This document shows, piece after piece, positions 13,164-18,243 of a stretch of DNA of 32,000 nucleotides. Position 1 is the stretch's first letter; each line of letters starts with the position of its first letter. The position numbers were made by a program, and so were the translations under genes. This DNA is from Candidatus Thorarchaeota archaeon (GTDB lineage: Archaea > Asgardarchaeota > Thorarchaeia > Thorarchaeales > Thorarchaeaceae): NCBI GenBank assembly GCA_008080745.1, contig SHMX01000009.1, forward strand, positions 30,001 to 62,000, given 5' to 3'. A model generated the notes under the pieces. The model was not told where the DNA came from, did not search any database, and saw only the letters and a program-made list of their open reading frames with translations.

Positions 13164-13766
13164 TTGAGTAAAATTGTCTTTGAGACCCCGGTTATCCGAA
13201 TTAGGGCAGAGAAGATTCGTTTTCCGAGGGTATGTCCTGTTTGCACTGCACCCGCAAGAAGCACAACTCGAGTTACAGCCACTCCAGGAAGAAAAGAATA
13301 CATCTCACCATCATATCGATTAGGATTTACTCCCTCTGCAAAAAAGAGGCTAGGTATACAACCTCCCGAAAGTCGTACTTTTCTCGTTCCGGTCTGTTCA
13401 GACCATCAATATGAAGGTGGGAATGATTGGCGATTCCGTAGCCTTTGTATGTGTTTCAATGGTATACTGTTTTCAATAGTCTTCTTCTCAACGTTAATTT
13501 TTGGAAGTGACCTATCTATTGGACGTGGAATAAATTTGTGGTATTTCGGATTACTTGGTCTTTTTATCATCTCTCTTATTGGAAGTGTACTTGCTTTTCG
13601 TCCCCAACCTATTCAGGATGCAGTCCGGATTATGGGTTTTGATAGAGGCGCTCGATATGTATGGTTCCAATTCAAAAACCCCGAGTATCGTGAGAGATTC
13701 ATTCAAGAAAATGCGATGGATGTCGAATTAGTAAAATGGATTGTAAAGGCACCTCCAAAGAGTTGA
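13164..13766 (+). CDS. Membrane protein with an N-terminal Zn-finger-like motif and 2 TM
   Basis: FPRVCPVC...VPVCSDH followed by two hydrophobic helices; TTG start. Confidence 0.72.
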   Translation: MSKIVFETPVIRIRAEKIRFPRVCPVCTAPARSTTRVTATPGRKEYISPSYRLGFTPSAKKRLGIQPPESRTFLVPVCSDHQYEGGNDWRFRSLCMCFNGILFSIVFFSTLIFGSDLSIGRGINLWYFGLLGLFIISLIGSVLAFRPQPIQDAVRIMGFDRGARYVWFQFKNPEYRERFIQENAMDVELVKWIVKAPPKS

Positions 13767-13880
13767 ACAATCCGCGCGATACCCGCATTTTTTCATAAAA
13801 GATAATACTACAAACGAGGATATATTCTCCTGCCACCACTATCAAATGAGAGAATTGTATGATTTATGGAGTGACTCTGA

Positions 13881-14126
13881 ATGTTGAATAGTGGTCTAGA
13901 AGAAATCGAAGTTGTTGGCTTAGTATCTAAGATTAGGAACCAGTATGTTATAACAACTGATGAGGGGATTCAATACGAACTTGCTGCAATTAAACCACAA
14001 GAGGCAGTAGCTCGTGATTATGATTTGGGTAGCTTTGCCCATTCTCTTGGAAAAAGAATGCTCGTCATTGGTATGACTGACGGTGAAACTATCTGGGGTG
14101 CTAAATTAGAAGAACAGGCCAGCTAA
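13881..14126 (+). CDS. Small hypothetical protein (OB-fold-like beta pattern)
   Basis: GGAGTGA RBS upstream; alternating beta-strand pattern EVVGLV...YVITTDEG..YEL...GKRMLVIG. Confidence 0.6.
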   Translation: MLNSGLEEIEVVGLVSKIRNQYVITTDEGIQYELAAIKPQEAVARDYDLGSFAHSLGKRMLVIGMTDGETIWGAKLEEQAS

Positions 14127-14127
14127 A

Positions 14128-14180
14128 AAAATAGTGGAGTCTGATCTAGTACGCCCAGATCAGATTCGACAATCTATTTT
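14128..14180. terminator. Long hairpin between convergent genes (terminator or 3' stability element)
   Basis: GAGTCTGATCT (14137-14147) pairs with AGATCAGATTC (14157-14167); outer AAAATAG pairs with CTATTTT. Confidence 0.6.
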
Positions 14181-14553
14181 ATAGTTCAAGCTTAGCTTCG
14201 TTCTTCCATAGGCCGTGAATATTACAGTATGATGTTGCCATAATGGTACCTGGTTTTTCAGTCTTGAATACAAATACTGCATATGGCTCAGAATACATCT
14301 TGCTGGTGTCTGCACCTTGTGTTGACTCACCATGATGGTCAAAGGTGTGGTAGCCTATCTCAACAGGAAACTTCTCTCCCTCGGGTAGGAAGAATGCATC
14401 AGCCCATTTAATATGATGTGCGGTTGTATTGGGGTGTGGTATTTCTTTTCCTACTGAAATAGTAATGTGAAACAAATTATCTCCTTTCTTCTCGATTTCA
14501 ATAACGGGTACGTGTTTTTCATTTTTCCAATCATCTGTTTGAATCCAGCTCAT
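14179..14553 (-). CDS. sor: 1Fe superoxide reductase (neelaredoxin / class II SOR)
   Basis: EKHVP, HPNTTAHHIKW and CNIHGLW iron-ligand motifs; no N-terminal desulforedoxin domain. Confidence 0.93.
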   Translation of the reverse strand: MSWIQTDDWKNEKHVPVIEIEKKGDNLFHITISVGKEIPHPNTTAHHIKWADAFFLPEGEKFPVEIGYHTFDHHGESTQGADTSKMYSEPYAVFVFKTEKPGTIMATSYCNIHGLWKNEAKLEL

Positions 14554-14645: not shown

Positions 14646-16142
14646 TTATTTTGATATTTCTTCTAAGTGTGAGAGAGTCCATCTTCCTCTATCAGTCAAA
14701 TCATAGTACTTTCGAACTCTCTTTTCATGAGATCTCATTTCTTTTGTTTCTACTATTAGTCCCCCTCTGGCTAACTCACTAAGATGCTGATATACACTAG
14801 GAATTCTAACTTGTATTCCATATTTCTCATCCAACTGCTTCCATATTTCGTATCCGTAATTCTCATTCTTGGTGAGAATTCGTAATATGCAAACCTTTGT
14901 TCTTCCCAATTTTGTTGTGTATTTTCGCCCCTCTAATCTACTCAGAAGATGTACCAAATCTTTCCGTCCCTTCACAAAAGATTCTGCAATCTCTGGAGAC
15001 TTAAGACCACTGCCTGTTATTATGCAGATTACCGTATCAGTAGGGTCAATAATACCCTGGTCTACAAGTTTTTTGAGGGCAGCTATAGTGGTTGCAGATG
15101 CAGGCTCAGCAAAAACGCCTTCAAGTTTAGCCAACCGCCTTACACTATCTAATATCTCACTGTCCATAACAGTGATTCCCCTCCCTTTGGATTCTCTAAG
15201 TGCACGTAATGCTTTACTGCCACATACCGGATTGGCAACACCAATATCCATTGCCAATTTTGGTTTGCCTGTCGAGGGCTTGACCTCCGTATCTCCCCTT
15301 CGATATGCGTCTACTATTGGTGAAATCCCTTTGACCTGCGTTCCGATGAGTCGAGGAAGATTCCCCTCAATAAGACCCAATTCTTGGAACTCTATGAGGC
15401 CTTTCCATATCATTGAAAGATTTCCTCCACTTCCCATAGGTGTGAGTATCCAGTCTGGTAGTTTCCATTCCATTTGTTCACAGATATCAAATATCATGGT
15501 CTTTGTTCCTTCTAGGAAGGGAGGATTGTTGGAAGTTATGGGATGATATGTTGGTTCTCGTTGCATGGCGAGTGAGATAGCTTCTTCTCTAGTCCTTACA
15601 ATCTCAACATCTGCACCATAAGCAAGTATTTGGTAGAATTTACCTATGTCAACTCGTCCTCTTTGTGCCATGAATACCTTTGCATCAATTGCTGCTTTCG
15701 CTGCGTATGCTACTACAGAAGCTGCAAGATTTCCCGTTGAACCACAACAAATCTTGGTTCTATTGTTCTCTAAGGACACGGATACCTCAACACTACTTCC
15801 TCTATCCAAAAATGAACCTGTGGGATTTGTGGTTTCATTTTTCAAAAGAAGATTTCGAACACCTATTTCAGATGAGAGCAAATTGGCTGGATGCAGATAG
15901 GTATTGCCTTCTCCTAATGAGATGATATGTTTCTGATCCATTATGGGTAACAGCTCAGCATATTTCCAGACCCCACTAACTCTTTTCTTCAATGCCTTTT
16001 TGTCAAGTTTCCCCTTTAGAATCTCAAGATCATATTCTATTTCGAGAATCTCTCCACATTTATTGCAGGTTCTTAGAGATGATGTGCTTGGGTGTGTTCT
16101 TCCACACTTTGAACATGCAAGACCTCTTACAAAAGATGCCAT
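14646..16142 (-). CDS. Threonine-synthase-fold protein lacking the PLP lysine, fused to a C-terminal PadR-like winged helix (probable regulator, not ThrC enzyme)
   Basis: ThrC motifs CSKCG, SLGEGNT, NPTGSFLDRG (K replaced by L), GSTGN, PMGSGGN, EPASA, TGSGLK. C-terminal YGYEIWKQL...SVYQHLSELARGGLI...RKYYDLTDRGR. ATG 16142 has an AGGTGAG RBS. Confidence 0.88.
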   Translation of the reverse strand: MASFVRGLACSKCGRTHPSTSSLRTCNKCGEILEIEYDLEILKGKLDKKALKKRVSGVWKYAELLPIMDQKHIISLGEGNTYLHPANLLSSEIGVRNLLLKNETTNPTGSFLDRGSSVEVSVSLENNRTKICCGSTGNLAASVVAYAAKAAIDAKVFMAQRGRVDIGKFYQILAYGADVEIVRTREEAISLAMQREPTYHPITSNNPPFLEGTKTMIFDICEQMEWKLPDWILTPMGSGGNLSMIWKGLIEFQELGLIEGNLPRLIGTQVKGISPIVDAYRRGDTEVKPSTGKPKLAMDIGVANPVCGSKALRALRESKGRGITVMDSEILDSVRRLAKLEGVFAEPASATTIAALKKLVDQGIIDPTDTVICIITGSGLKSPEIAESFVKGRKDLVHLLSRLEGRKYTTKLGRTKVCILRILTKNENYGYEIWKQLDEKYGIQVRIPSVYQHLSELARGGLIVETKEMRSHEKRVRKYYDLTDRGRWTLSHLEEISK

Positions 16143-16150
16143 CGTTCTCA

Positions 16151-16180
16151 CCTATATATAGGCCTAGGGTTATATATTCC
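16151..16180. promoter_or_regulatory. Overlapping divergent promoter/operator region with palindromes
   Basis: Perfect palindrome CCTATATATAGG (16151-16162); inverted repeat ATATATA-N10-TATATAT (16154-16177) containing TATA-like boxes. Confidence 0.5.
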
Positions 16181-16205: not shown

Positions 16206-16808
16206 TTGGTGGTATTTCCTATGGAAAAAATAAGTTCGAGCACAAAGAATTCAACAGTCTACATTGCCTTATTAGCAATATTTACTGCCCTTACTGCGGT
16301 CATAACTGCAGTAGTTGCAATCCCTTTTCCTACAACATCCGGATATCTTAATATTGGAGATATGATGGTCATGTTGAGTGGAATGCTTCTCGGTCCTGTT
16401 GGTGGATTGATTGCTGGAGGAGTGGGTTCAGGCATGGCTGATGTTGCTTTGGGATATTTGCCCTTTGCCCCAATTACGCTGATAGTAAAGGGGTTTGAGG
16501 GTTTCATTGTTGGATTGTTTAGTCTAAAATCGAAAAAGGCACAAAACCTCACAAGAATGGATGCAATTGGAATCGTCCTAGCCGCAATAGCAATGCTCCT
16601 AGGATACTTTGTATTTGAGAGTATATTATTCGGGCCAGTTGCAGCTTGGGAGGAGTTAGTTAGTATCAACTGGATTCAAGTTACTGTTGGCGGAATATTT
16701 ACAGGATTATTTGGTCCGAAGATTCGTTCATATTTGCATAATGCCTCAGTAACATTGGCAGAACCAGGCGAATATGAAGAGCTAGAACTTTCAGAAATCG
16801 ACGCTTGA
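16206..16808 (+). CDS. ECF transporter S component (family containing PdxU2/HmpT-like B6 transporters)
   Basis: GYLNIGD...LLGPVGGLIAGGVGSGMADVALGY..FAPITLIVKGFEG signature; ~5-6 TM; alternative ATG at 16221. Confidence 0.82.
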   Translation: MVVFPMEKISSSTKNSTVYIALLAIFTALTAVITAVVAIPFPTTSGYLNIGDMMVMLSGMLLGPVGGLIAGGVGSGMADVALGYLPFAPITLIVKGFEGFIVGLFSLKSKKAQNLTRMDAIGIVLAAIAMLLGYFVFESILFGPVAAWEELVSINWIQVTVGGIFTGLFGPKIRSYLHNASVTLAEPGEYEELELSEIDA

Positions 16809-16965
16809 AAACTGAATCGTTTTAGATATCGGAATTTGCAGTTTTCAAGATACTTCTGGAATGAAGATAGAAAACGAATATGTTCTTTCAGAATCGTTTT
16901 TTAATAATCAAGTATTGGACTATCTTGGCTTACTATCAGAGTCGAATTGATTGGAAGGTCTTGAA

Positions 16966-18243
16966 ATGGACAGAGAAAAGTTACGAATTGATGCCAAACA
17001 ACTCGAAGCCATAAACGATTTTCTCCTGAATGAAGATAATCCTTTGATTACTGATTTATTGGAGGTAATTGAAAAGTATGGTGGTGTTGATGAAATTAAT
17101 GGAAAAGCCGAGAAAGCAAGAAAGTTAGAGAATCTCCTAGCTATGTTAGAAGAGAAGGATTCTCCCTATTTAGAGGATCTTAGATGGCTTCAAGAACAAC
17201 GTGACAATGGTGCTTTCATTAGTATTTCCGATTATAGACGAAATGTTCTGGGCGATAAAGCTGACTCGGTGGAATTTGATGAAAGTTTTGCAGTCACCCT
17301 TGAGATTAGCGCCTGTCAATATTTCCCATGGCTCATTGAACAAGCTAAACAGGCAATTGAAAATCAAGAACTTATGCCTGCCCGCTTTATCCGCGTTAGA
17401 AAGATGAAGGAACAAACAGAAGATGATGATATTATTGCTTTTGCTGCTGCTATGCAGATTTTAGGAGCTTCATATGTCGAAACTTTGGATACAAAAGGTA
17501 CGGCCCCTGGACCTGATGGGGCACCTGTGAACATTCACCTCGGTGGTCCTGAGACCATCACTGGTTATTTTGGTGGAGTTGGTATGCCAAATGATTTTGT
17601 CATCAGGTGGGCAGATGAATTCCTTCACTACTATACCACTTATGGTGTAAAACAGGTTTTGAATATCAACCCTGGTAGTGTCCTTATCGGGTATATGATG
17701 CACAAAATGGGCATCGATATAGAGTTCAAAATATCGGTCTATATGGGAAATGATAATCCTTATGCATGTCTGTGGACTCTACTAACTGCCAAGTTATTCA
17801 GTCGTCCTGATGGAACCACATCTCTGATTGGTTTCAACCTATCTAACAGTGTTGACAATACCACTATTGAACTTGCATCCTTCATTCGGGGTGAGTTTGG
17901 TTTTGAAGATGTAGTACGACTAGAACATCATATCACTGAAACCTACAAGTCCATTGTCAGACAGCCATATGATAGGACCGAAGAACTCGTGGAGCTTGCG
18001 GATCATGTTAAGAACATAAGTGCCAAACACGAGGGTGGCATTCCTGAAATTGATGTCACACGTGAGCATCCAAGTGATATTCTCGATTACTTCCGTGATA
18101 AGAGTGAAATTGTAGAGTCTGGTGATATGCCTAAGATGCTGCGAAACTATCTTGACAAGCATCATGCTCTCAATCGCACTGCAGAAGAGTTGACAAAGAA
18201 AGGTCTTACCTTTATCGCAGCTCCAAAGCTGCACAAGAAATAG
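16966..18243 (+). CDS. Conserved-looking soluble hypothetical protein (possible enzyme)
   Basis: Long clean ORF; ATG 16966 with GAAGGT upstream; Gly/His-rich motifs HLGGPETITGYFGGVG, EHHITETY, KHEGG. No family recognised. Confidence 0.8.
   Translation: MDREKLRIDAKQLEAINDFLLNEDNPLITDLLEVIEKYGGVDEINGKAEKARKLENLLAMLEEKDSPYLEDLRWLQEQRDNGAFISISDYRRNVLGDKADSVEFDESFAVTLEISACQYFPWLIEQAKQAIENQELMPARFIRVRKMKEQTEDDDIIAFAAAMQILGASYVETLDTKGTAPGPDGAPVNIHLGGPETITGYFGGVGMPNDFVIRWADEFLHYYTTYGVKQVLNINPGSVLIGYMMHKMGIDIEFKISVYMGNDNPYACLWTLLTAKLFSRPDGTTSLIGFNLSNSVDNTTIELASFIRGEFGFEDVVRLEHHITETYKSIVRQPYDRTEELVELADHVKNISAKHEGGIPEIDVTREHPSDILDYFRDKSEIVESGDMPKMLRNYLDKHHALNRTAEELTKKGLTFIAAPKLHKK

Follow-up and report, generated by a model that had tools for sequence, protein, structure and literature searches.

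A threonine-synthase-like PadR fusion protein lacking the Schiff-base lysine as a candidate vitamin B6-responsive regulator in Asgard archaea

What is the role of a protein that has the fold of threonine synthase (ThrC) but not the lysine on which that enzyme depends, and that carries a DNA-binding domain at its C terminus? The question is raised by a gene on the minus strand of a 32,000-nucleotide stretch of the genome of a Candidatus Thorarchaeota archaeon (contig SHMX01000009.1, positions 30,001 to 62,000), referred to below as the window, in whose coordinates all positions are given unless a contig is named. Two DNA sequencing runs from a single marine-sediment study, possibly the source of the assembly, were the only runs that contained this stretch, and no RNA run was listed with it. 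Sequence comparison suggests that the product is probably a one-component transcriptional regulator responsive to pyridoxal 5'-phosphate (PLP) or another form of vitamin B6, and not a threonine synthase, which would make it an archaeal analogue of the bacterial regulator PdxR assembled from unrelated parts. Neither a described ThrC-PadR protein nor an archaeal B6 regulator was found in the literature searched, which left out most subscription journals. The gene and the parts of its product are as follows.

14646 to 16142, minus strand: gene of the fusion protein (ThrC fold plus PadR), 498 amino acids from the ATG at 16142
16056 to 16115, minus strand: N-terminal four-cysteine zinc ribbon (C13, C16, C29, C32), from the alignment and the structure model
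15012 to 15923, minus strand: fold-type II PLP-enzyme domain (PALP), threonine-synthase-like, residues 77-380, the proposed ligand sensor (PF00291, 4e-59)
15807 to 15809, minus strand: TTG codon of Leu115, in place of the Schiff-base lysine, from alignments to solved ThrC structures
14673 to 14888, minus strand: C-terminal PadR-type winged helix-turn-helix, residues 422-493 (PF03551, 2.6e-16)

Anatomy of the fusion protein and loss of the lysine across its family

The only long open reading frame (ORF) in the stretch flagged by the initial annotation covered 14646..16151 on the minus strand and gave 501 amino acids from a GTG. This GTG, in frame at 16151, adds three residues to the ATG start at 16142, which agrees with the 498-residue database version of the protein and lies 8 nt past a conserved palindrome described below. 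Residues are counted here from GTG 16151. The initial annotation had read the product as a full ThrC fold with a complete PadR domain appended, and both halves were recovered by Pfam, with PALP at 4e-59 and PadR at a rounded 3e-16 (59.8 bits on PF03551 against a cut-off of 27 bits, residues 422-493), and by structure prediction. The AlphaFold2 model, built on a 54-sequence alignment, had a mean predicted local distance difference test score (pLDDT) of 92.4 and a predicted template modelling score (pTM) of 0.84, and consisted of an N-terminal zinc ribbon, a two-lobed ThrC body, a linker and a winged helix made up of three helices, a beta hairpin and a final helix. In the zinc-ribbon region, beta strands were modeled at residues 8-13 and 35-40, and C13, C16 and C32 were invariant in the family alignment, with C29 nearly so. 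Confidence was low in the linker between the PALP and PadR domains (about residues 390-416), with pLDDT <50 at 409-413. The top Foldseek matches of the model were the threonine synthases 2zsj, 6nmx, 1v7c and 2d1f, with template modelling (TM) scores of 0.85-0.88 by target and a root-mean-square deviation of 2.1-2.8 Å.

Leu115 aligned opposite the Schiff-base lysine of the NPTGSFKDRG motif in 2zsj, 2d1f, 6cgq and 1uim, a residue that corresponds to Lys61 of the Thermus enzyme as counted on the printed alignment. The minus strand reads ACA AAT CCC ACA GGT TCA TTT TTG GAT AGA GGA AGT here, translating to TNPTGSFLDRGS, and the TTG codon reported earlier at 15809-15807 was thus verified; it stands two substitutions away from AAG. 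In fold-type II PLP enzymes, this lysine is required both to form the internal aldimine and to act as catalytic base. Judged from these alignments, the fusion protein fails the defining catalytic feature of a threonine synthase. It resembles the solved enzymes (2zsj, 2d1f, 6cgq, 1uim/1v7c) in its 35-38% identity over ~340 residues, in its fold and cofactor-binding motifs, and in an N-terminal zinc ribbon as in archaeal-type ThrC, but differs from them in the change of the Schiff-base lysine to leucine, in the columns of Thermus Thr88, Asn154, Arg160 and Asn188, and in the appended ~110-residue linker plus PadR domain.

The motifs GSTGN, PMGSGGN, EPASA and TGSGLK, described as intact in the initial annotation, were all present. 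Across the fused family, F114, D116, R117, G140, N141, G240, G242 and E349 were invariant or nearly so, and the stretch T379-G380-x-G382-L383-K384 was conserved as well, with T379, G380 and K384 again invariant or nearly so. Among these residues, F114, D116 and R117 flank the lost lysine, N141 is the Asn of the STGN motif, and G240 and G242 form part of the glycine-rich loop. Such residues contact the O3', phosphate and ring nitrogen of PLP in fold-type II enzymes, and their fixation in the fused family argues for retained cofactor binding. The pattern of conservation indicates that the cofactor pocket is under selection despite the loss of the lysine. The family alignment showed no other conserved lysine that is specific to the fused family; K104 and K384 sit in motifs common to the aligned solved threonine synthases.

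Changes were also seen in the substrate site. The columns of Thermus Thr88, Asn154, Ser155, Arg160 and Asn188, which we take to be the ligands of the substrate phosphate, hold Leu, Thr, Ser, Phe and Ser in the fusion protein; no paper stating the roles of the Thermus ThrC active-site residues was found in the literature searched. The Arg160 column was hydrophobic in 51/51 fused representatives, and the Thr88 column was mostly Leu. A loss of the substrate site in the fused family is only suggestive, because unfused relatives also vary at these columns, that of Arg160 included.

Isoleucine or leucine occupied the lysine column, within NPTG[SA]F[IL]DRG, in all of the 120 closest homologues, which were 47-66% identical to the fusion protein, all had PALP plus PadR, and came from Lokiarchaeota, Thorarchaeota, Hodarchaeota, Sifarchaeia and Odinarchaeia. 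A wider survey searched 1.84 billion cluster representatives, and the best 150 were aligned. Representatives with a long PadR domain had L, I, V, M, T, N or F at this column and K in 0/51, whereas the lysine was kept in 76/76 unfused full-length relatives; three "unfused" rows without K were truncated copies of the fused family. At the Asgard genome loci, the residue was I or L in 30/30. The loss of the lysine is a family trait and not a strain mutation.

A sister clade of about 470 amino acids, whose PadR domain has a shorter wing, was found in Bathyarchaeia, Lokiarchaeota, Odinarchaeota, Baldrarchaeia and Helarchaeota, and had R, K or S at the lysine column, with K in two representatives. 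Since these two keep the lysine, its loss is no precondition for the fusion. The co-segregation of lysine loss with PadR fusion proposed initially is strong, but not absolute: it holds between long-PadR and unfused proteins and has exceptions in the short-wing clade. A FastTree phylogeny was computed for the PALP core without the lysine column. A branch with 99 support had all fused proteins on one side except P0157, which grouped with unfused relatives, and the short-wing group was sister to the lysine-less group. An order in which fusion came first and the lysine was lost later is suggested, and only suggested because the tree was quick and unrooted.

The annotation of these proteins as enzymes was also examined. 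The best NCBIfam matches of the fusion protein were threonine synthase models, of which TIGR00260 was passed (195 bits against a cut-off of 167). NF004170 (PRK05638) aligned end to end, residues 12-496 on model positions 3-441 of 442 with PadR included, but at 295.4 bits the fusion protein remained below the 421-bit cut-off. It is the short-wing clade that NF004170 fits: P0159, a member of this clade with Arg at the lysine column and a PadR tail, reached 451.6 bits. In 0/14 control genomes was there a protein above the cut-off. Because the Arg-bearing P0159 passes, the name "threonine synthase" of NF004170 is doubtful, and the model probably gives an enzyme's name to a family of regulators. 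Mis-annotation of the family as threonine synthase had been foreseen, and public sources do so name its homologues. Correcting this widespread naming matters since it distorts metabolic reconstructions of Asgard archaea.

Other ThrC-like proteins of about 615 amino acids (P0179, P0189, P0195, P0211, P0214 and others) keep the catalytic lysine. P0179 has a C-terminal LeuA allosteric/dimerisation domain (PF08502, by Pfam) and the others were grouped with it by length; the P0179 type is a different fusion of the same enzyme family.

Gene neighbourhood, intergenic element and host metabolism

Two features upstream of the regulator gene bear on the putative ligand.

16221 to 16808, plus strand: divergent S component of an energy-coupling factor (ECF) transporter, PdxU/PdxU2/RibU family, the proposed regulated target (PF07155, 4e-34)
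16151 to 16177, no strand: conserved intergenic element, the proposed operator (palindrome CCTATATATAGG, 7-nt spacer, TTATATAT)

The regulator gene lies head-to-head with the S-component gene, which has an alternative TTG start at 16206 and encodes a protein of 195-200 amino acids. The S component scored 118 bits on PF07155, and its only match among PDB sequences was chain S of 4HZU (HmpT/PdxU2; 1.9e-11), with no riboflavin S component among the PDB sequence matches up to E = 1. Pyridoxamine was identified as the preferred substrate of HmpT/PdxU2 (PMC4860826), and PdxU and PdxU2 both belong to PF07155/COG4720 (PMC9997740). The sequence evidence points to a PdxU2-like predicted B6 transporter.

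In a sample of 301 Asgard genomes, a PF07155 gene was divergent from the regulator and at a distance of <=1.5 kb in 30/30 best loci. The pairing was seen in a Lokiarchaeote, a Hodarchaeote, a Thorarchaeote and a Sifarchaeon with otherwise differing surroundings, the Sifarchaeon having an acetyltransferase gene inserted between the two, and was also present in four more distant Asgard genomes and one Aigarchaeote. In three lineages (genomes G007 and G041 and the P0138 contig), the regulator adjoins pdxS-pdxT instead of an S component. The order is regulator-pdxS-pdxT on one strand in G007, and pdxT-pdxS divergent from the regulator in G041 and on the P0138 contig. All three of these regulators lack the lysine (3/3). 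No threonine or methionine pathway genes occurred as conserved neighbours in the loci examined. The genomic context points to vitamin B6, and the ligand class first proposed for the fusion protein, a B6 vitamer, gained support from a PdxU2-like partner in most loci and pdxS-pdxT in three.

The spacer between the regulator and S-component genes is about 78 bp long and contains, in order, CCTATATATAGG (16151-16162), CCTAGGG and TTATATAT (16170-16177); read from the regulator gene, the element is ATATATAA-N7-CCTATATATAGG. Over 31 loci, nearly all of its 28 core columns were >=90% identical, with flanks at about 35-45%, and the proteins at these loci were only 50-55% identical. In 23/31 loci, the end of the palindrome is 11 nt upstream of the ATG. 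In the Hodarchaeote, the two arms form a perfect 24-bp palindrome, and the pdxS-regulator spacer of G041 contains CCTATATATAG together with a second similar box. The bipartite pattern occurs once in the 3.16-Mb host genome, a regulon search of which returned no second copy. If a distance of about 26 nt is assumed between an archaeal TATA box and the transcription start, ATATATAA would be the TATA box of the regulator gene, with a nearly leaderless mRNA, and the palindrome would lie between TATA box and start, the classical position for a repressor; one of the two AT boxes, read the other way, would serve the S-component gene.

Within the host genome, which is 98% complete, PdxS and PdxJ were not found and the Phos_pyr_kin kinase gave no match above the cut-off; two EcfT genes were present. 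Among Asgard genomes >=90% complete, PdxS occurred in 20/189, and in 0/39 of the organism's own family. This distribution suggests that B6 auxotrophy is widespread among Asgard archaea and that a salvage kinase has escaped recognition, absence from draft genomes being no proof; a regulated uptake gene is in keeping with a need for imported B6. The family marks a predicted B6 uptake locus in organisms in which searches for PLP synthase mostly came up empty, a point of relevance to nutrient dependence and syntrophy among the archaea most closely related to eukaryotes. The genome also holds a threonine dehydratase and two ThrC-type ORFs with the lysine, of 437 amino acids (L002, NPSGSFKDRP) and 394 amino acids (L003, NPTQSFKDRG), so that separate Lys-bearing ThrC-type genes, in line with a check proposed in the initial annotation, do exist.

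Proposed mechanism and alternative explanations

We propose that the ThrC fold, deprived of the Schiff-base lysine with its cofactor pocket kept, acts as a sensor of vitamin B6. The most likely ligand would be a phosphorylated vitamer such as PLP, and its binding is proposed to be reversible, as formation of an internal aldimine is precluded. The C-terminal PadR domain would bind ATATATAA-N7-CCTATATATAGG in the spacer, probably as a dimer; ThrC dimers and PadR dimers are textbook cases. When B6 is plentiful, the regulator would repress B6 uptake as well as its own gene, and when B6 is scarce, it would release both. Repression would be the simplest mechanism, since the TATA-like boxes of the two promoters overlap with the element and the palindrome is placed between the likely TATA box and the start codon of the regulator gene. 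In relatives able to make PLP, the same kind of regulator stands beside pdxS-pdxT.

Several observations weigh against a B6-responsive regulator. PF07155 also holds riboflavin transporters, and the match of the S component to HmpT is moderate. A single taxonomic family supplies most of the 30 loci, which are therefore not independent observations, and neither an S-component gene nor pdxS-pdxT adjoins the regulator at four loci (two Odinarchaeia, G006 and the P0170 contig). Short-wing members that keep the lysine (Lokiarchaeota, Bathyarchaeia) also adjoin a PF07155 gene, which means that the loss of the lysine is not what makes the protein a regulator. The conservation of the AT-rich element could largely reflect two TATA boxes and no operator.

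The protein could be a regulator whose sensor reads O-phosphohomoserine, threonine or a PLP-amino-acid adduct rather than B6 status. The domain does descend from threonine synthase, and PLP bound without the lysine could be present as the external aldimine of an amino acid, but the conserved partners are a PdxU-family transporter or pdxS-pdxT, with no threonine or methionine pathway genes in the loci examined, and the columns of the presumed phosphate ligands Arg160 and Thr88 have turned hydrophobic (51/51) and mostly Leu, respectively, in the fused proteins; we regard this explanation as unlikely. It is quite improbable that the regulator serves another micronutrient carried by S components, such as riboflavin or hydroxymethylpyrimidine (HMP), with a coincidental link to B6. 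This reading draws on the naming of PF07155 for riboflavin S components and on HmpT having first been proposed as an HMP transporter (PMC4860826), and it is opposed by the PDB search, which up to E = 1 gave HmpT/PdxU2 alone, by the three relatives that adjoin pdxS-pdxT, and by the nature of the sensor, a PLP-enzyme fold with its cofactor-binding motifs kept.

Only a very slight chance is left to the view that the protein has remained an enzyme, be it threonine synthase or another PLP enzyme related to it that works without the canonical lysine, and that PadR adds no more than autoregulation. Although TIGR00260 is passed and some members of the sister clade keep the lysine, an inert hydrophobic residue replaces it across the family in a fold type that needs it, K104 and K384 are shared with solved threonine synthases and leave no family-specific lysine to take its place, and two Lys-bearing paralogues are available in the host genome. 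The possibility that the gene is decaying or was inactivated by a mutation in this strain only, for which nothing speaks but the single substitution itself, was ruled out for practical purposes by the intact frame, the confident model, and a substitution of the same class in hundreds of homologues (35-66% identity) whose surrounding motif is conserved. A B6-responsive regulator remains the explanation that we consider likely.

As a regulator of this kind, the fusion protein resembles members of the PdxR/MocR group (GabR, TauR), in which a winged-helix DNA-binding domain and a sensor derived from a PLP enzyme are likewise joined in one polypeptide. The core of the bacterial PdxR regulon consists of pdxST and pdxU (PMC5320631), the same two gene sets that adjoin the ThrC-PadR family, and MocR regulators were reported as not present in Archaea (PMC5320631). 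MocR proteins combine an N-terminal GntR winged helix-turn-helix (wHTH) with a fold-type I aminotransferase-like domain; this architecture was not found here, as Pfam gives PALP and a C-terminal PadR only, on the fold-type II ThrC fold with the lysine gone. The aminotransferase-like domain of MocR keeps its PLP lysine. The resemblance to PdxR is therefore one of function and not of homology, and the fusion protein is no MocR member. Regulation of B6 supply is known in Bacteria through PdxR, and the ThrC-PadR family would fill the archaeal gap.

Archaea offer a second comparison. ThiR joins ThiN to an HTH domain. RbkR joins riboflavin kinase to a wHTH and is described as bifunctional, with the kinase activity kept (PMC5397151). 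As proposed for the fusion protein, a cofactor-pathway enzyme domain coupled to a DNA-binding domain controls the synthesis and transport genes of the corresponding vitamin in these systems. The enzyme folds and vitamins are different, and RbkR keeps its kinase activity, whereas the sensor here is without the catalytic residue. The ThrC-PadR family would clearly exemplify how an enzyme fold that loses its catalytic lysine becomes a sensor and nothing else, and the conserved proposed operator provides a direct handle for experiments.

The downstream gene and other sites

One further gene forms part of the conserved cluster.

16951 to 18243, plus strand: 430-amino-acid protein without a Pfam domain, directly 3' of the S component, conserved cluster member

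The 430-amino-acid protein had no match in Pfam, NCBIfam, Atlas-feature or PDB sequences, and its thousands of homologues all carry the label "hypothetical". At least 26 related loci have it after the S component, with 56-89% identity. Where a substantial part of the gene lay in the fetched flank, identity among Loki-, Thor- and Sifarchaeia was 68-89%, a conservation far above that of the regulator. An AlphaFold2 model on a shallow alignment had a pLDDT of 52.8, too poor for a fold search. Its gene may be part of a B6 uptake operon with the S component. A bolder reading, which we offer tentatively and think rather doubtful, is that regulator, S component and 430-amino-acid protein constitute a complete B6 acquisition module, in which the lysine-less ThrC fold would sense free PLP non-covalently and repress the divergent operon, and the 430-amino-acid protein would be a new B6 salvage enzyme, e.g., the vitamer kinase that gave no match above the cut-off in the host genome.

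Elsewhere in the host genome, the only other copy of CCTATATATAGG was located at G000:C7:32394-32405 (L016), about 260 nt upstream of a 472-amino-acid ORF, and no Rfam match was obtained around C7:32394-32405. This copy is preceded by three ATGTACA repeats. Two candidate regulon sites were rejected: the C4 palindrome TATATACTAGGGCTTAGTATATA (G000:C4:346533-346555) lies in the promoter region just upstream of the TBP gene, and a C2 match with 7 mismatches near a second, weak PF07155 gene falls inside a 446-amino-acid ORF and was attributed to chance.

Downstream of the regulator, the region 13164-14553 of the window includes a desulfoferrodoxin gene at 14179-14553 on the minus strand. The order of desulfoferrodoxin and two small Pfam-less ORFs (81 and 200 amino acids) is kept in the Lokiarchaeote and the Sifarchaeon (L006, L010), and both of these loci have a rubrerythrin gene beyond the gene of the 430-amino-acid protein.

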